Source: a virus. Taken from it: a stretch of 39,207 nt of DNA. This document shows positions 1,780 to 24,767 of this stretch, in pieces. The DNA lies in the UHGV virus genome UHGV-1357020; one strand, given 5' to 3'. Position 1 is the stretch's first letter. The number at the start of each line of letters is the position of its first letter. A program made the translations under genes and the position numbers. The notes beneath the pieces are model-generated. The model was not told the origin of the DNA. It was given only the letters and a program-made list of their open reading frames with translations, and did no database searches.

Positions 1780-3255
1780 TTACGGCATGTGGTAGTAGTA
1801 TACTTTAAGTTCGTCTTCTTCTCGATCATAGACAATTTTCTCCACAACGCTTCTAAGCACCTCATTCTTGGTCGTCGCATCTACGGAATCGGATGAGAGA
1901 ATATCGTACACATTTTTTACTCTCATCAACATATCATTGTCCTCATTTTTGGTGCTTATTTTCTCTTCTTTAAGCTCAGACAGTTGTTTTTCTAGACTGT
2001 CTTTCTCTCCCTGCACAATCCGTTTATTTTCCTTGTATTCTTCCATAGTATCAATTCCATTCATGTATGCCTCTTTGATTCTCTGCAGCTTCACGTCGAT
2101 TTTCTTTATCTGATCTTCCAGTATGGTTTTCAAGTCCGCAGTATCTTCCGTTTTAGCCTCAATCTTCCGGTAGGTTATTTTTCCAGTATCCAATACAGAC
2201 TTAATTGATTCCAATACCGCAGGCTCAAGCTTTAGAGAGCTTATGGAGTTCTTCGCCGCACATTTTCCCTTGGAGTATCCGTAACAGCGAAAATAGCAGT
2301 ATGTCTGCTTATTGTTTTCAATCTTACAGGCAGTCATCGTCCTTCCACACGCTGGGCATTTAACGATCCCAGATAGCCAGTGCTTGTACGTGCTTGCCGG
2401 TCTCGCTCCACGTGGGCGGTATTCTCTCTTGTATCGCTCCTGTGCCTTATCAAACAATTCCTTACTAATGATTGCAGGTTGTTCTCCCTCAGCGATAATC
2501 CACTCGCTTTCTGGCCGGATCTCTTTCGATTCATTAATCGTCCGATTCCACCGCACCATCCCGCAGTAAGTGGGGTTCTGTAGGATATATTCGATAGACC
2601 TTCGTTCAAATTCTTTCCCATGTGATGTTTTAAAGTTATGGCTATTCAAGAGCCGTGCGATCTCAAACAGTCCCATGCCGTCATGCACATACTTTTCAAA
2701 AATCAGCTTCACGATTTCAGCCTCTTCCGGTACGATCACTGGCGGTTCTTTATGTGATACAATCTTGTACCCAAGTGGTGGGCGTGCTTGGTATCCACCT
2801 CGTTCCGCTTTTTCTCTCATTCCTCTTGTTACTTCTCCGGATAGACGGACAGAGTAATATTCATCCATCCACTCAATAATTCGTTCGATCAGAGAGCCGA
2901 ATGGACCATCTACCAGTGGTTCAGAGATGCTTATTACGTCCACGTTATGCTTTTTCTTGAGCAAGGACTTGTATACAATACTTTCCTCTTGGTTTCGTGC
3001 AAATCGGCTGAATTTCCATACCAGTATGGCATCTGCCGGATGATCGGATGATTTCGCAAGACCGATCATTTTTTGAAACTCTGGGCGTTTGTCTGCTTTT
3101 CTTCCGGATATTCCGAGTTCAAAAAAGATTTTCGATACTACATATCCGTGACTTTTCGCGTAATCTTTCAATAGCTTCGCTTGAGAATCCGGGGATAATT
3201 CATCCTGTTTTCCTGTGGATACACGGACGTATCCAAAAGCGTATTTCGTTTCCAT
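1780..3255 (-). CDS. int: large serine recombinase (phage integrase)
   Basis: 491 aa. The N-terminal resolvase catalytic motif YVRVSTGKQ contains the catalytic Ser. Followed by a recombinase domain, a Cys-rich zinc ribbon (CPACGRT...CYFRCYGYSKGKC) and a C-terminal coiled coil. AAGGAG RBS on the minus strand. Confidence 0.9.
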   Translation of the reverse strand: METKYAFGYVRVSTGKQDELSPDSQAKLLKDYAKSHGYVVSKIFFELGISGRKADKRPEFQKMIGLAKSSDHPADAILVWKFSRFARNQEESIVYKSLLKKKHNVDVISISEPLVDGPFGSLIERIIEWMDEYYSVRLSGEVTRGMREKAERGGYQARPPLGYKIVSHKEPPVIVPEEAEIVKLIFEKYVHDGMGLFEIARLLNSHNFKTSHGKEFERRSIEYILQNPTYCGMVRWNRTINESKEIRPESEWIIAEGEQPAIISKELFDKAQERYKREYRPRGARPASTYKHWLSGIVKCPACGRTMTACKIENNKQTYCYFRCYGYSKGKCAAKNSISSLKLEPAVLESIKSVLDTGKITYRKIEAKTEDTADLKTILEDQIKKIDVKLQRIKEAYMNGIDTMEEYKENKRIVQGEKDSLEKQLSELKEEKISTKNEDNDMLMRVKNVYDILSSDSVDATTKNEVLRSVVEKIVYDREEDELKVYYYHMP

Positions 3256-3435: not shown

Positions 3436-3810
3436 TTATAAAACGTGTGACGCTATAAGTCTGTTTATAGATTGCACATCTGAGTTCGAGGTGAAATCAA
3501 ATTTTACTGTTCCTAATCCACTAAAACAAACAGTGAGTTCTGAGTCCATATCGAAAGTGCCAGAAGTTTCAACCGAAAATGCTTGCATTTTTGAATACGG
3601 CAACGATGTATAATCTTTTTTAGTTCCTGCAATACCTTGCACGTTGCATGCAATAATTCTTTTGTTTGTAAAAACAACGAAGTCTCTCATCGAAGAGTAA
3701 TACCCGGCCACTTCTTCATCAGTTACAAGCAAGCTGAAAACTTCTCTCGGAATGTTCTTTTCTTTTCCTTTGCTTAATTTGAATACTTTTTTGTTCTGAA
3801 AATCAATCAA
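3436..3810 (-). CDS. hypothetical protein with a possible bacterial PH-like (YokE/bPH-type) fold, a moron in the lysogeny operon
   Basis: 124-aa ORF co-oriented with int, the lipoprotein gene and immA/immR. The fold assignment is a pattern-based guess only. Confidence 0.45.
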   Translation of the reverse strand: MIDFQNKKVFKLSKGKEKNIPREVFSLLVTDEEVAGYYSSMRDFVVFTNKRIIACNVQGIAGTKKDYTSLPYSKMQAFSVETSGTFDMDSELTVCFSGLGTVKFDFTSNSDVQSINRLIASHVL

Positions 3811-20519: not shown

Positions 20520-20729
20520 ATGAAGAAAATAGAAGCATACACTATGGCAACGAGAAAGCCCTGTGAGACCGCTTTAAAGCAACAGGAGCATAAAGCCTTT
20601 GCCTGTGATTTTAAAAGCCGTGAGAGGACGAATAAGGACGCTGTGGAGTACATAGCAGAGAAATACAACATAAAAGATCCTGTTCCGGGAGGTGATAGAG
20701 TTGGACAAGAAAACACTGAAAAAGTATAG
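20520..20729 (+). CDS. hypothetical protein (69 aa)
   Basis: AAAGGAG RBS 9 nt upstream. Confidence 0.4.
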   Translation: MKKIEAYTMATRKPCETALKQQEHKAFACDFKSRERTNKDAVEYIAEKYNIKDPVPGGDRVGQENTEKV

Positions 20730-21114
20730 ACCGAACAAAGATAGACTTATCCGGATTGAGAACCAGATACAAGAACTCAGTGAACGGGAATCGACTGTTG
20801 TCATGGGGAAGGTAACGGGATCCAGTGCAGATTTTCCGTACACCGAAGTGAGAACGTCTGTACAAATGTATGATCCTTACGAGGAAGAGAATATAAGACG
20901 TCAGATCAGAAGAAAAGAAGCGGACAGGCTGCGGATTCTGAAAGAGCAAAAAGAAGTCGAGGACTACATAAATGGGATTGATGATCCGGAGATTAAGGAG
21001 ATATTCGAGTTGCACTATCTTGAGGGGAAAACCCAGCAAAAAGTCGCAGATGAAATTGGATATACCCAGGCGCGAGTATCGCAGATTATAAGCGCACAGC
21101 TTAAAGATTTATAG
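20692..21114 (+). CDS. ArpU/sigma-70 region-4-like late-gene transcriptional activator. TTG at 20701 is the likely start.
   Basis: C-terminal HTH LEGKTQQKVADEIGYTQARVSQII resembles sigma-70 region 4 and ArpU-family phage late regulators. Last gene before the packaging module. Confidence 0.6.
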   Translation: MIELDKKTLKKYRPNKDRLIRIENQIQELSERESTVVMGKVTGSSADFPYTEVRTSVQMYDPYEEENIRRQIRRKEADRLRILKEQKEVEDYINGIDDPEIKEIFELHYLEGKTQQKVADEIGYTQARVSQIISAQLKDL

Positions 21115-21131
21115 CATTTATATTTTACTTA

Positions 21132-21140
21132 TGCTATAAT
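21132..21140 (+). promoter_or_regulatory. extended -10 promoter element TGcTATAAT, followed by interleaved inverted repeats (AGAAC/GTTCT and GATTGT/ACAATC, 21145..21175)
   Basis: Read from the sequence. Candidate late promoter or operator upstream of the structured RNA region and tRNA. Confidence 0.3.
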
Positions 21141-21191
21141 TATTCTAGAACGATTGTATATTGTTCTAAAACAATCTTTCCAAACATTCAG

Positions 21192-21236
21192 AACACCGCC
21201 GGACTTTTACCCTTTCTTGTCTGGCGGTGTTTTTAT
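21192..21236 (+). terminator. terminator-like hairpin AACACCGCC-loop-GGCGGTGTT followed by TTTTAT
   Basis: 9-bp GC-rich stem and T-tract. The loop is unusually large (22 nt). Confidence 0.4.
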
Positions 21237-21283
21237 GCCGTGGTCAGTTGGGACAAGCAGGTTCGATCCCTGCACACGGTTTT
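21237..21283 (+). ncRNA. degenerate tRNA-like element (acceptor-like stem, D-loop-like GTCAGTTGGGAC, perfect T-arm GCAGG-TTCGATC-CCTGC, no anticodon arm)
   Basis: The T-arm sequence is a textbook tRNA T-stem-loop. The flanks GCCGTG / CACGGT can pair as an acceptor stem. It is not a duplicate of the downstream tRNA-Asn. Confidence 0.35.
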
Positions 21284-21474
21284 GTGATGTAAGGTTTGCG
21301 GCTTACCAGCTGGGGGTTGCTGTGGGAGTGCACACCGGCTTTACATCACAAATGGTACCAAAACGCAGATATCCGCAGATTTGCAAAACAAACAAAAATA
21401 GATTCAGCAATCTATATTTAGTGTCAGTACCTGAGTGCGGATAGGGTAAAGGATGTCAATAAAAGGCATCCTAC

Positions 21475-21547
21475 GGGTGTATAGCTCAGTAGGTAGAGCA
21501 ATCGGCTGTTAACCGATGTGTCGCAGGTTCGAGTCCTGCTATACCCG
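21475..21547 (+). tRNA. tRNA-Asn (anticodon GTT), no encoded CCA
   Basis: Manual fold. Acceptor GGGTGTA/TATACCC with one G-U pair. D-arm GCTC-AGTAGGTA-GAGC. Anticodon stem ATCGG/CCGAT with loop CTGTTAA (GTT at 21508..21510). T-arm GCAGG-TTCGAGT-CCTGC. Discriminator G. Confidence 0.85.
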
Positions 21548-21740
21548 TTGTGGACTACTGCAAGTTACTCCTTTTTTTATAAAATGATCACTCAAGATTC
21601 CGAGAGATCATATAGATTTTGATTGTGTACTTGGTTATTTTGGTTTTGTTGCTGTTATAATTCTTTCATTTTGCAGTAGTCCTAAATTCTTAGCATCCAG
21701 AAATGGGTGCTTTTATTATGTTTTAAAGGTGGTGAGTCGG

Positions 21741-22208
21741 ATGGCAAAAGGTAAATATCAGGAATGGCTAGAGCCGGAAGGCTTGCTAAAGATAGAGGGA
21801 TGGGCGAGAGATGGTCTGACAGACGAGCAGATAGCAAATAACATAGGGATATCGGTATCTTGCTTGAATAACTGGAAAAACAAGTATGTGGAGATTTTGG
21901 AGTCCCTAAAAAAGGGAAAAGAAGTTGTTGATCGTCAAGTTGAGAACGCTCTGCTAAAACGTGCGCTTGGATATGAGTACACGGAAACAACCAGGGAATA
22001 CATACCGGAACTTGATGAAATGAAAACTACAAAAAAGGTCACAAAGCAAGTAGCACCGGACACGACAGCCCAGATCTTTTGGTTGAAGAACCGGAAACCG
22101 GACAAATGGAGGGATAAGCAGGAATACGAGGACAGAACAGCAATTGAGAAGCTGGATGAAATCTTGAAAGGATTGCATGACAATGCAGCTAAGCAAAAAA
22201 CAGAATGA
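21741..22208 (+). CDS. terS: terminase small subunit (HTH-containing)
   Basis: Immediately upstream of, and overlapping, the large terminase gene. Predicted HTH region LTDEQIANNIGISVSCLNNWKNKY. Confidence 0.6.
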   Translation: MAKGKYQEWLEPEGLLKIEGWARDGLTDEQIANNIGISVSCLNNWKNKYVEILESLKKGKEVVDRQVENALLKRALGYEYTETTREYIPELDEMKTTKKVTKQVAPDTTAQIFWLKNRKPDKWRDKQEYEDRTAIEKLDEILKGLHDNAAKQKTE

Positions 22209-23424
22209 ATACATCATAAACGCAACTCATAGATGGAATATCAAGTCCGGAGCGGTTCGTTCTGGAAAGTCCTTTGTAGACACTGCTTATATTGTCCCAA
22301 AAAGAATCAGAGATAGAGCTGGACTCCCCGGCTTGAATGTAATCATGGGTGTCTCCAAAGAATCCATAGAGCGAAACGTACTCCAACCGATGAGGGAAAT
22401 CTATACCAGTGATCTAATCGGGAACATTAACAACCGGAATGTGGCAAGAGTATGCGGAGAGGATGTCTATTGTCTCGGAGCAGAAAAGGTCAGTCAGGTT
22501 GCGAAGATACAGGGAGCGTCCATTAAGTACTGTTACGGCGATGAGATAGCAAAATGGAACAAAGAGGTGTTCCAGATGCTTAAATCCCGTCTCGATAAGA
22601 CGTATTCCTGTTTTGATGGAGCTTGCAACCCGGAGAATCCGACACATTGGCTAAAAGAATTTCTCGACAATAAAAAATTAGATATCTATTTGCAGAGATA
22701 CACGATTTTCGACAATCCGTTTCTAGACCCAGATTTTGTAGAAAAGCTATGTATAGAATATGACGGTACGGTTTACTATGACCGGTTGATTCTCGGTCTC
22801 TGGAAACGAGCAGAGGGAGCGATTTACCGCAAATTTGCAGATCATCCGAAAGATTTTGTCAAAGAGCCGACTGCATCCGATCTGACAGAGATTGTCATTG
22901 GCGTGGACTTTGGTGGTAATAAGTCTGGTCATTCTTTCGTGGCAAGAGGGTATGACCGAGACAATAATGTATACGGATTGAAGAGTATCCGATACATGAA
23001 TACGGACACGAAAAGGTTTAAAGAGGGAATTGATTCAAACATTCTGAATGATCTTCTTATTCAATTTGTTGATGAGGTGCAAGAAAAGTATAGAAAGGTT
23101 GATTTTATTTACTGGGATAACGCGGAGACTACGCTCGGCCAGAGTATACGGAATGCCATGATGAAAGCGCATTCGAATGTAATTGTGAGACCGGCTAAGA
23201 AAATTAGGATAAAAGACCGGATTGAGTGCGTCTTAAAGCTCATGGGAGCTGGGCGCTTTTTTATTACAGAGGATTGCGAAACATTATCGACAGCATTACA
23301 AGAAGCGGTGTGGGATGAAAAAGCATTAAAAGACGATCGTCTGGATGACGGAAGTAGTGATATTGATACACTGGATGCATTTGAGTACACGATAGAACGC
23401 GACATTAAAATGCTGACAGAGTGA
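22177..23424 (+). CDS. terL: terminase large subunit (PBSX/XtmB-like)
   Basis: Walker A GAVRSGKS near the N-terminus. 415 aa. Position after terS. C-terminal nuclease-type acidic residues. Confidence 0.9.
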   Translation: MTMQLSKKQNEYIINATHRWNIKSGAVRSGKSFVDTAYIVPKRIRDRAGLPGLNVIMGVSKESIERNVLQPMREIYTSDLIGNINNRNVARVCGEDVYCLGAEKVSQVAKIQGASIKYCYGDEIAKWNKEVFQMLKSRLDKTYSCFDGACNPENPTHWLKEFLDNKKLDIYLQRYTIFDNPFLDPDFVEKLCIEYDGTVYYDRLILGLWKRAEGAIYRKFADHPKDFVKEPTASDLTEIVIGVDFGGNKSGHSFVARGYDRDNNVYGLKSIRYMNTDTKRFKEGIDSNILNDLLIQFVDEVQEKYRKVDFIYWDNAETTLGQSIRNAMMKAHSNVIVRPAKKIRIKDRIECVLKLMGAGRFFITEDCETLSTALQEAVWDEKALKDDRLDDGSSDIDTLDAFEYTIERDIKMLTE

Positions 23425-23432
23425 GGTGCAAG

Positions 23433-24767
23433 ATGTTTAAGTTTATTAACAAGGTTATTACAGGAGTGTTTAACATGATAAGCAGAACCACGATGAAGCA
23501 GGTGTTGAGAGAATCTCCTGCAATTACAAGCACAATGGTGCAGAAAATAAATGAATGGAACAGCATGCTCTCTGGGAATGCAGACTGGTGCAAGGATTAT
23601 GTGAAGTCCCTGAGGATTGAACAGGGGATATGTAGAGAGTTTGCAGATGTTGTGCTGTCGGAAATGGAAATAAAAATATCGAACGATAAGCTCTTAAAAC
23701 TGTTTGAGAAAACCACAGAGAGCCTGAATGAGAATCTACAGGACGGTCTTGGACTTGGTTCGTTCTGCCTAAAACCCCTTGGAAATGGACAGGCAGAGTT
23801 CGTGACAGCAGATAAGTTCATCCCGGTGAGCTTTGGAAATGATGAGAAGCCGAACGATATAGTCTTTCTGGACTTCCGAAGCATAGACGATGCAAAGTAT
23901 TATGTTCGCCTGGAGCGGCACAGTATCAAAAACGGATTCCTCGAGATCACAAACGAAGCCTATTGCTCATCCACAAGATATGGATTTGACCGGAAAATCT
24001 CTCTGGAAAGCTTAGAAGCATGGGCTGGATTGCCGGAGCATGTAGCGTATCCGGGAGTTAAAGAGATGGATTTTGGGTACTACAGAAATCCGATAAAAAA
24101 CAGGGTTGACGACACGCCATGCGGTGTGTCTATTTTTGATTCCGCGATCAACCTTATTGAGAGAGCTGATGTGCAGGGAGCAAGGATAGACTGGGAATTT
24201 GAATCCGGAGAGAGGGCAATCCACGTGGACGCTGCAGCCATGAAGAGAGAGCCAGATGGACGGAATGGAGTATCTAAGCTAAACAAGCGCTTATATGTTG
24301 GAATCGACAGCGAGGAAGGGTTTTACAAAGAGTTCTCGCCGGAATTCCGGGAAGAGAATCTAATAAACGGTCTAGATAACTACCTCAGACAGATCGAGCT
24401 TGTAGTCGGACTTGCATTCGGAGATTTAAGCAATCCGCAGAGCATCGACAAGACAGCCACAGAAGTAAAAGCATCCAAAAACCGGAAGTACAACCGAGTA
24501 AAGGCGATTCAAGATAATTTAAGGGACTGCTTAGAGGATTTTGTAAGAGGTATGGCGTTCCACGAGGGGATGCTTCATTCCGGATATGAGTTTATCTGCA
24601 GTTTTAAAGATTCGATCCTGACAGACGAAGAAACGGACAGACAACTGATGCTAAATGAGATAGCAGCCGGAATCAGATCACACTGGGAGTACAGGGTTCG
24701 ATTCCTCGGGGAGGATGAAGAAACTGCAAAAGCGAATGTGCCGGATCAAGGTGGAGTAATGGAGTGA
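23433..24767 (+). CDS. portal protein (SPP1 gp6-like)
   Basis: About 445 aa, directly after terL and followed by the MuF-like gene, which is the canonical order. GTG at 23421 is an alternative start. Confidence 0.7.
   Translation: MFKFINKVITGVFNMISRTTMKQVLRESPAITSTMVQKINEWNSMLSGNADWCKDYVKSLRIEQGICREFADVVLSEMEIKISNDKLLKLFEKTTESLNENLQDGLGLGSFCLKPLGNGQAEFVTADKFIPVSFGNDEKPNDIVFLDFRSIDDAKYYVRLERHSIKNGFLEITNEAYCSSTRYGFDRKISLESLEAWAGLPEHVAYPGVKEMDFGYYRNPIKNRVDDTPCGVSIFDSAINLIERADVQGARIDWEFESGERAIHVDAAAMKREPDGRNGVSKLNKRLYVGIDSEEGFYKEFSPEFREENLINGLDNYLRQIELVVGLAFGDLSNPQSIDKTATEVKASKNRKYNRVKAIQDNLRDCLEDFVRGMAFHEGMLHSGYEFICSFKDSILTDEETDRQLMLNEIAAGIRSHWEYRVRFLGEDEETAKANVPDQGGVME

Follow-up and report, generated by a model that had tools for sequence, protein, structure and literature searches.

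The virus genome UHGV-1357020, analysed at its full length of 39,207 nucleotides (nt) and called the window here, is that of a temperate siphophage, with a serine recombinase gene (1780–3255, − strand), a gene for a RinA-like late regulator (20692–21114) and terS/terL from about 21741. Around 625 non-coding bases separate the regulator gene from terS. Within them lies a 44-nt tRNA-like element without an anticodon arm (21237–21280), which we call the mini. Comparison with related phages suggests that 21115–21475, the part of the interval upstream of a tRNA-Asn gene, is best explained as the 5′ portion of a structured RNA leader, conserved and modular, which runs on the + strand between the late-regulator gene and terS. 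The features, with stem lengths in base pairs (bp), are as follows.

20692–21114, + strand: RinA-like late regulator gene, the upstream boundary (Pfam Sigma70_r4, 7.7e-08; weak DUF1492 match)
21104–21158, + strand: putative leader promoter, with an extended −10 TGCTATAAT at 21131–21139 overlapped by inverted repeats
21146–21168, + strand: small 5′ leader hairpin (9-bp stem, minimum-energy fold)
21190–21236, + strand: T1, a terminator-like GC hairpin plus U tract (15-bp stem), which stops 1–2 nt 5′ of the tRNA-like element
21237–21280, + strand: the mini tRNA-like element, slot 1 (fold, covariation, RNAalifold, covariance model)
21281–21352, + strand: hairpin M, a 12-bp perfect basal stem (16 bp with G·U) with a branched interior, starting at the base after the mini
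21353–21473, + strand: block C, about 120 nt, near-invariant in the family, with hairpins at 21394–21419 and 21451–21471 and a possible stem 21370–21377/21436–21443
21475–21547, + strand: canonical tRNA-Asn (GTT), slot 2 (ARAGORN, as 21474–21548; Rfam, 72.6 bits)
21552–21682, + strand: long-range stem GGACTACTGCAA / TTGCAGTAGTCC, a perfect 12-bp inverted repeat (21552–21563/21671–21682) enclosing about 107 nt
21692–21721, + strand: T2, a second terminator-like hairpin plus T tract (terminator scan), adjoining the ribosome-binding site (RBS) of terS (ATG at 21741)

Eight GenBank phages, seven of them phages of Ruminococcus (Mediterraneibacter) gnavus, show 76–95% identity to the window starting at position 21173, and the protein at the regulator position in the GenBank relatives is annotated as 'RinA family transcriptional activator'. 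In six of the eight the homology ends at the start of terS and the terS/terL module differs, which indicates that the non-coding block travels with the regulatory side, independently of the packaging module. To widen the comparison, an exact 19-mer from the most conserved part was used to collect 120 IMG/VR contigs and, from these, 95 distinct 670-nt segments, of which 94 are genuine family members (the remaining one is a spurious anchor match). The order of the leader is constant in the segments: a promoter-like region with regulator-type direct repeats, a small hairpin, T1, slot 1, hairpin M, the near-invariant block C, slot 2, the long-range stem, T2, the RBS and terS.

A tRNA-like element without an anticodon arm

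The mini folds into three helices. GCCGTG (21237–21242) pairs with CACGGT (21275–21280) to form a 6-bp acceptor, and GTC-AGTTGG-GAC (21243–21254) forms a D-like hairpin of 2–3 bp with GG in its loop. The perfect T arm that the original prediction had pointed out, GCAGG-TTCGATC-CCTGC, occupies 21257–21273 (stem 21257–21261/21269–21273, loop TTCGATC at 21262–21268) and has the 5-bp stem and 7-nt loop T54-T55-C56-R57-A58 of a tRNA; the absence of an anticodon arm, also part of that prediction, holds across the whole 44-nt element. In place of the four arms of a canonical tRNA there are three helices, with 2 nt joining the D-like stem to the T stem, and in place of a 7-bp acceptor and a 12-bp stack there are 6 bp and 11 bp. 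G7 pairs inside the D-like stem, and an unpaired A lies 3′ of the T stem. CCA is not encoded in the element of either slot, and a trailer of the TTGTG type follows each of them.

A scan of the interval with a tRNA finder and Rfam had been proposed as a check. ARAGORN and Rfam found only tRNA-Asn(GTT) at 21475–21547 between the regulator gene and terS, and made no call at 21237–21280, either at the Rfam gathering threshold (29 bits) or at E ≤ 10; this is expected, because the mini has no anticodon arm. Rfam returned canonical tRNAs only, at the gathering threshold over the whole window and at E ≤ 10 on 20900–21800 and related loci, and in the latter scan there was no credible match to T-box, C4, YrlA, GOLLD or ROOL. 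A covariance model scores the mini at 66.2 bits and finds it as a single copy in the window. Folded alone, the 44-mer is modestly better than its shuffles (z = −1.6), and its significance therefore rests on comparative data. The tRNA-like domain of a transfer-messenger RNA (tmRNA) was considered and rejected: ARAGORN reports no tmRNA, the acceptor encloses just 32 nt, whereas that of a tmRNA joins the two ends of an RNA of about 300–400 nt with a tag reading frame, and pair 3–70 is C–G and not G3:U70. The window has three copies of the T-arm core GGTTCGANNCC, where 0.23 would be expected. The third GGTTCGATTCC motif, at 24695–24705, lies within the open reading frame (ORF) 23421–24767, where the covariance model flags no tRNA-like fold, and is probably due to chance.

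Selection on the mini and the strand on which it acts

We compared 18 distinct mini variants, which fall into two subtypes with different connectors and provide 234 pair cells over 13 pairs. All but one of these cells are paired (233/234, 99.6%). Five of the 13 pairs show changes on both sides (acceptor pair 2–71, both D-like pairs, and T-stem pairs 49–65 and 51–63), with compensatory changes in all three helices; at 2–71, C–G has become U–A, and the U·G intermediate is seen. Sliding the partner columns by 1–3 positions lowers pairing to 24–56%, no shuffle reached the observed covariation score, and RNAalifold, unguided, gives the same three helices. Both subtypes keep the D-like stem by covariation despite their different connectors. 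Lack of conservation at the paired positions in related phages had been named as evidence that would count against the element; we find these positions conserved, with compensatory changes. Such a pattern points to a tRNA-like element under selection and away from a tRNA that is simply decaying, and we find neither the relaxed constraint nor the pair-breaking changes and indels of a tRNA pseudogene. Among the three options offered at the outset (a degenerate second tRNA, a tRNA-like regulatory or processing element, or a small RNA transcribed with the late operon), a selected tRNA-like element is thus the one favoured, and the compensatory changes argue against the first.

The one-sided changes (18 cells) are all G·U, and on the opposite strand they would be C·A mismatches. 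Because such changes work on the + strand alone, the constraint acts on an RNA with the same orientation as the late genes, and from this strand-specific variation we infer that the mini is transcribed. Its T loop has the form TTCGANN: TTCGA is invariant in 21 sequences and variation is confined to positions 59–60, as in real tRNAs. The GG of the D-like loop is likewise kept across the variants, and the two fixed motifs together would fit a D-loop/T-loop elbow.

These observations also bear on the idea that conservation acts on DNA, as a protein-binding or packaging site or as a recombination anchor for swaps of tRNA cassettes, with the RNA-like fold being incidental. The position just upstream of terS, the alternation of conserved blocks with swapped cassettes and the short palindromes (TGGTACCA, GTGATATCAC) at the junction of hairpin M and block C are in its favour, but strand-specific, G·U-only variation is meaningless for duplex DNA, and the variation follows the T-loop rule of tRNAs (54–58 fixed, 59–60 free). 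Moreover, the block is unchanged while the terS/terL module differs in six of the eight GenBank relatives, unlike a terminase-specific site, which disfavours a packaging site in particular. We regard a DNA site as highly improbable.

Two alternative occupants of slot 1

In all 94 genuine segments, slot 1 holds an element that is tRNA-shaped yet non-canonical: a mini of 44–45 nt in 57 and a cloverleaf of 70–72 nt in 37. The cloverleaf is named tRNA-Ala(CGC) by ARAGORN and in GenBank records. It has an 8-bp acceptor with G-1:C73, which we take to be of the histidine type, lacks nucleotide 26, has a 3-nt variable loop, and carries G3–C70 in place of the alanine identity pair G3:U70. Its best match within the Rfam clan is tRNA-Sec at 28.3 bits, below the cut-offs for tRNA-Sec (47) and tRNA (29). 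In one IMG/VR subgroup the anticodon arm of the cloverleaf has been rebuilt as CGCGG-GGUAUCG-CCGCG and ARAGORN makes no call. The ARAGORN-based label 'tRNA-Ala' is therefore probably wrong. The 'tRNA-Ala(CGC)' of four published R. gnavus phages (MT980836–MT980838 and MT980840) is abnormal; it lies at 667–739, 665–737, 667–739 and 668–740 of the extracted loci L004, L006, L007 and L008. Slot 2, by comparison, is always a canonical tRNA scoring about 70 bits (Asn, Lys(TTT), Ile(TAT) or Trp(CCA) among the relatives).

The mini and the cloverleaf differ in the sequences of their acceptors and T stems, and on these grounds we rejected the idea that the mini is a deletion derivative of the 72-nt form. 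As the two have no acceptor or T-stem sequence in common, what the slot needs appears to be the shape of the top half of a tRNA, not an anticodon. Mini and cloverleaf are alternative occupants of one slot, and the feature that they have in common, going by their predicted folds, is the upper half of the tRNA shape. The acceptor/T-arm helix together with the D-loop/T-loop elbow is the part of a tRNA that is recognized by RNase P, RNase Z and the CCA-adding enzyme. The mini is best explained as a selected tRNA mimic that retains only this part and could not decode.

The same data speak to whether the mini might be a functionless tRNA gene decaying after an internal deletion of its anticodon arm, and looking conserved through the close kinship of the phages. 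It does lie in a region of phage tRNA slots, its place is taken in related phages by a full-length tRNA-like gene, and neither ARAGORN nor Rfam calls it. However, its acceptor and T-stem sequences differ from those of the full-length form; its 18 variants show compensatory and G·U-only changes with a single unpaired cell among 234; two subtypes with differing connectors keep the D-like stem by covariation; and similar elements occur in phages of other phyla. Decay thus seems very improbable to us.

Similar elements in other phages

To find similar elements, we looked for this acceptor in combination with a T loop that lies too near for a real tRNA, using only degenerate-base (IUPAC) patterns over sequence collections; the acceptor shared among distant phages is in part a product of this design. 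Furfurilactobacillus prophages carry a 42-nt mini with a different T stem (GGUGG/CCACC), which is the first element 3′ of a 140-amino-acid regulator-like gene and direct-repeat boxes and is followed directly by a hairpin, then by aberrant tRNA-like elements, HNH, terS and terL. BLASTP of the window regulator against the regulator upstream of this mini found nothing, and the two have only a weak DUF1492 match in common. The aberrant tRNA-like elements lie in the prophage leader (2057–2142 and about 2240–2345 of locus L138; from 7040 in L155). One of them, which scores 35.5 bits with Rfam and is not called by ARAGORN, has a normal CAU anticodon arm that is separated from the D arm by around 11 additional nt, and another has a large insertion in the anticodon region.

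Scans of IMG/VR and JGI metagenomes added one mini within the tRNA array of a 412-kb jumbo phage and around nine further distinct elements with complete T stems. A scan for any acceptor over 1.7 Mb of collected sequence, in which about 0.5 matches were expected by chance, gave three more minis. Their acceptors are unrelated, and all three lie in contigs already holding a mini, which make up 1.5% of the sequence. In contig L197, each of three consecutive intergenic gaps contains a mini, a few nt after the stop codon and around 30 nt before the next RBS, and the arrangements in L202, L204 (ORF, mini, terminator) and L209 are similar. We set aside most pattern matches in GC-rich genome contigs and the 36-nt metagenome matches, which are without a full T stem, as chance or coding sequence. 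Phage clamp-like proteins are encoded in L197 and L202; PHROG searches of the genes around the L204 and L209 minis were uninformative. In the GC-rich contigs L197 (250–295, 587–631 and 1334–1381) and L202 (reverse strand, 2460–2500 and 3485–3527) the minis, one per gap and with differing acceptors, flank the clamp-like gene (phrog_947).

A possible RNA-processing mark

In the window, the borders of the tRNA-shaped elements coincide with those of their neighbours. The U tract of T1 ends 1–2 nt before G1 of the mini and hairpin M starts at the base after its acceptor; the 3′ hairpin of block C ends 3 nt before tRNA-Asn, and the long-range stem starts 4 nt after it. The mini thereby combines a non-canonical tRNA-like fold and a T-arm motif with a position at a boundary between functional units of a presumed transcript, as do plant-mitochondrial t-elements and mascRNA. 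By analogy with these systems, we give an even chance to the interpretation that the mini is a processing mark for RNase P and RNase Z that releases a leader RNA of about 193 nt. The element borders sit where cuts would separate functional units, which speaks for processing, and we count the recurrence of minis at cistron boundaries elsewhere in its favour as well.

In such a scheme, transcripts would start at the promoter near 21131–21139, and some would pass T1. Host RNase P would cut 5′ of G21237 and RNase Z after about 21280/21281, and the processing of tRNA-Asn would add a second pair of cuts. The expected products are a leader containing T1, a mini RNA of about 44 nt, an RNA of about 193 nt (21281–21473), tRNA-Asn and the late mRNA, which would have its new 5′ end at the base of the 21552/21682 stem. 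As the 193-nt RNA would begin with hairpin M and end with a hairpin, both of its ends would be protected; the released RNAs may have roles of their own.

Several points weigh against processing. The acceptor/T stacks of the mini (11 bp) and the cloverleaf (13 bp) depart from the 12 bp of a tRNA and may make poor or shifted substrates for RNase P and RNase Z. An ordinary tRNA is never found in slot 1 and always in slot 2, which would be hard to explain if any tRNA shape sufficed, and the strong terminator-like hairpin T1 stands between the promoter and the mini. A punctuation mark seems unnecessary inside the tRNA array of a jumbo phage. The identical acceptor GCCGUG/CACGGY in distant phages, although partly a search artefact, could point to sequence-specific recognition. 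Finally, transcription from the proposed promoter and every one of the cleavages are predictions from sequence.

Some of these points would suit a released mini RNA that is itself functional and acts in trans. Such a tRNA mimic, which might carry a CCA tail or an amino acid, would bind or distract a host factor that reads the acceptor/T-arm end of tRNAs; this factor could be a synthetase, a modification enzyme, EF-Tu, or a defence nuclease or toxin directed at tRNAs. Such a role could account for the recurrence of one 6-bp acceptor in phages that differ widely in host and GC content, for the single copy within the jumbo-phage tRNA array, where an extra cut site is needless, for the exclusion of ordinary tRNAs from slot 1, and for the G-1:C73 and 8-bp acceptor of the 72-nt form, which resemble those of tRNA-His, G-1:C73 being the identity rule of that tRNA. 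Defence systems that attack tRNA 3′ tails are reported to exist (PMC12851939). However, the common acceptor is partly an artefact of searching for it; the acceptor varies within the family (GCUGUG, GUCGUG/CACGAC), the co-resident minis in L197, L202 and L204 have unrelated acceptors, and the discriminator base differs (U, A or C). No partner gene is visible in one fully annotated relative, and the presence of one mini in each of three successive intergenic gaps suggests punctuation more than a dosage of decoy. We consider a trans-acting mimic unlikely.

Extending the processing interpretation beyond the window, we propose, with somewhat less than even confidence, that several unrelated phage groups use undescribed tRNA mimics of 41–48 nt, with an acceptor, a GG-containing D-like hairpin and a T arm but no anticodon arm, as RNase P and RNase Z punctuation of polycistronic transcripts, and that in R. 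gnavus phages the mark and a genuine tRNA together excise a near-invariant late-leader RNA of about 190 nt. A bolder variant is conceivable, in which the mini RNA, once excised, serves to decoy those host factors or defences whose target is the acceptor end of tRNAs.

Hairpins, cassettes and block C around slot 1

T1 matches the GC hairpin with a T tract that had been described: 21190–21204 pairs with 21219–21233 around a 14-nt loop (GC-rich core 21194–21204/21219–21229), and TTTTTAT follows. Its energy is −34.7 kcal/mol (z = −7.8 against shuffles), and a GC-rich hairpin followed directly by UUUUUAU is the form of an intrinsic terminator; a simple terminator scan misses T1 only through its 8-nt loop limit. 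The motif is present in the family segments with its U tract adjoining slot 1. Across nine phages, no variation is seen in the 3′ strand or in the 3′ part of the loop, and the changes in the 5′ strand all preserve pairing (G·U, A–U). The fixation of 21205–21233, that is, the 3′ part of the loop and the entire 3′ strand (CCCTTTCTTGTCTGGCGGTGTTT), exceeds the constraint that a plain terminator needs.

On the other side of slot 1, the perfect 12-bp stem noted previously (21281–21292 with 21341–21352, enclosing 48 nt) is the base of hairpin M. Between slot 1 and block C, the segments have 38 distinct sequences of four or five unrelated types, and all of them fold with a basal helix that starts at, or 1 base after, the end of the slot-1 element; this helix is contiguous over 7–16 bp in 36 of the 38. 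The 12-bp stem is thus, as far as predicted folds go, a cassette-variable hairpin that always abuts slot 1. Many of the G·U pairs in hairpin M fit the + strand only, although folding energy does not separate the strands (z = −3.1 for + and −2.9 for −). At its junction with block C (21353–21360 and equivalents) stand the palindromes, TGGTACCA in most cassettes and GTGATATCAC in another, which could be a protein-binding or dimerization site.

Block C is almost unchanged across 63 distinct versions and includes an A/C-rich single-stranded tract, CAAAACAAACAAAAA. In its 3′ hairpin (21451–21471) the stem is kept, with A–U to G·U changes, and the loop varies (AATAAAAG, GATAAAGG, ACTG, AGAC). The stem 21370–21377/21436–21443, for which the supporting changes are all G·U, has a competitor in a local GCAGAU/AUYUGC hairpin, so that around 21365–21384 and 21436–21443 there are two pairings that exclude each other. 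With its length of about 120 nt and no Rfam match, block C may be a new non-coding RNA or switch of phages. When the phage was searched for sites to which the leader RNA could be antisense, only local stems were found at 12 nt, plus scattered 11-mers.

The near-invariance of block C, and the conservation of 21190–21720 as a unit while the flanking genes are exchanged, would also fit a mini that stays uncut, as a structural domain of a larger leader RNA or as a 5′ protective fold (for example, against RNase J) acting with hairpin M, block C and the tRNA. The non-standard 11- and 13-bp stacks might avoid cleavage, and GOLLD and ROOL are phage RNAs near tRNA islands, with tRNAs sometimes inside GOLLD (PMC12286853). 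The canonical tRNA in slot 2 would, however, almost certainly be excised and so split such an RNA anyway; slot 1, hairpin M and slot 2 shuffle as independent cassettes; Rfam gives no match to GOLLD or ROOL even at E ≤ 10; and the minis of other phages stand alone between genes. We rate an uncut domain as less likely again than a trans-acting mimic, and below the processing mark.

Relation to known tRNA-like RNAs

Phages are known to make small RNAs that RNase P cuts out through mimicry of the acceptor and T arm, such as the stable RNAs of the T4 tRNA cluster, the C4 RNA of P1 and P7 and the CI RNA of P4, and some of these regulate transcription termination or translation in a leader. Unlike the mini, they belong to phages with hosts among the Proteobacteria and have other folds and sequences, and the Rfam C4 family has no match here. 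The armless mitochondrial tRNAs of nematodes and mites are miniaturized like the mini (40–50 nt), but there the D and/or T arms are lost while the anticodon arm is retained and decoding continues, so that the mini is the opposite reduction.

The closest described analogue of the mini, if this is tRNA-shaped punctuation and not a decoder, is the t-element of plant mitochondria. t-elements carry the motif GGTTCRANYCC, through which they were discovered, their ends coincide with mapped mRNA ends, and they are thought to direct the RNase P and RNase Z cuts that create these ends; the excised element can receive non-templated C or A (PMC1920247). Like the mini, they have non-canonical tRNA-like folds with the GGTTCRANYCC T-arm motif, and within polycistronic transcripts they mark coding-region borders. 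They are, however, organellar, with experimentally mapped ends, whereas the phage mini has no sequence relation to them and is known from sequence alone, and its three-helix form is compact (41–48 nt) and wholly without the anticodon arm. In mascRNA, at the 3′ end of MALAT1, and in the TMERs of murine gammaherpesvirus 68, an embedded tRNA-like module likewise serves as a handle for RNase P or tRNase Z (PMC8457004, PMC4337559). In TMERs, hairpins come immediately after the tRNA-like part, an arrangement also seen for the mini, with hairpin M in the window and a hairpin in Furfurilactobacillus and in L204. Unlike the mini, these RNAs are eukaryotic and keep an anticodon-like arm, and the hairpins of TMERs give rise to microRNAs, which have no bacterial equivalent.

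YrlA and other Y RNAs have a tRNA-like domain with a T and a D arm that does not decode, and one member is cleaved by RNase P and given CCA; in contrast to the mini, the acceptor-like stem is closed by a loop, the domain opens at the position of the anticodon stem into the Ro60-binding stem, and the genes adjoin rsr (PMC4201824). The mini has no Rfam match to this family at E ≤ 10 and its topology is reversed; rsr is absent from the annotated genes of one close relative, the window itself not having been searched for it. GOLLD and ROOL resemble the leader as structured non-coding RNAs of Firmicutes phages and prophages that lie beside tRNA genes and are probably co-transcribed with them (PMC12286853, PMC5737381), and GOLLD, like the leader, is variable towards its 5′ end and conserved towards its 3′ end. 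They are 580 to more than 800 nt long, with Rfam families (RF01998, RF03087) that are unmatched in the window and the related loci scanned, whereas the leader unit of about 190 nt lies between two tRNA-shaped elements.

A paper on R. gnavus phages counts merely 'one or two tRNA genes', and our literature search found no description of the compact form or of its use by phages, nor is there an Rfam family for it. tRNA-like processing handles and tRNA mimics are already known kinds of element, and the compact phage form without an anticodon arm appears to be new in that we found no description of it. Discussion of phage tRNA genes usually centres on codon usage or on how phages escape anticodon nucleases. 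Here, a tRNA-shaped element that cannot decode is under clear purifying selection, in a fixed slot at the start of the late operon in a group of phages abundant in the human gut. Should it prove to be a cut mark, phages would punctuate their mRNAs with tRNA shapes in the manner of mitochondria, and the reading of late-gene expression, RNA stability and small-RNA production in these genomes would change.

Promoter region, terS-proximal leader and annotation

The extended −10 with interleaved inverted repeats that had been recognized upstream of T1 is present (TGCTATAAT at 21131–21139; repeats 21104–21117/21131–21144 and 21135–21158), and 21104–21158 is predicted from it to function as a promoter. 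This stretch is specific to the window; the relatives have three direct repeats spaced about 10 nt and a −10-like TATAGTATAAC, and a different hairpin (GGAGT..ACTCC) at the place of the 21146–21168 hairpin.

Downstream of slot 2, the long-range stem, which begins 4 nt 3′ of tRNA-Asn, is kept in the relatives around different inner cassettes, with one compensatory pair, several G·U changes and some mismatches too. Its arm starts are 92–95 nt apart in most relatives and 124 nt apart in the window, which has a specific insertion of about 32 nt (around 21584–21615, 3′ of tRNA-Asn) with its own inverted repeat, TGATCACTC..GAGAGATCA. The stem also encloses a pyrimidine tract at 21564–21580 (ACTCCTTTTTTT in the window, CCTCCTTTTT in most relatives), which resembles the anti-Shine–Dalgarno end of 16S ribosomal RNA and could pair with the terS RBS. 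T2 (AGCATCCAGAAATGGGTGCT plus T tract) is conserved in most relatives, and with T1 it makes two terminator-like hairpins that would lie in the path of late transcripts.

The only long ORF across the leader (21154–21444) had been called almost certainly spurious, and rightly so: it has no Pfam match and its frame is not kept open in the relatives, and we rejected a coding reading for these reasons. Among the 95 related segments, the median stop-free stretch is 186 nt; a single segment, presumably that of the window, reaches the maximum and is free of stops over the whole 290-nt interval. A coding reading is likewise unsupported for gp15 of phage RG-TP1 (PQ571303.1), a 'hypothetical protein' annotated over the same RNA. 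The tRNA-Asn of RG-TP1 (907–981 of the extracted locus L001) is entirely missing from the annotation. ORF callers put hypothetical proteins on top of these leader RNAs, and in RG-TP1 the gp15 annotation (577–720 of L001) covers the leader hairpins and the mini.

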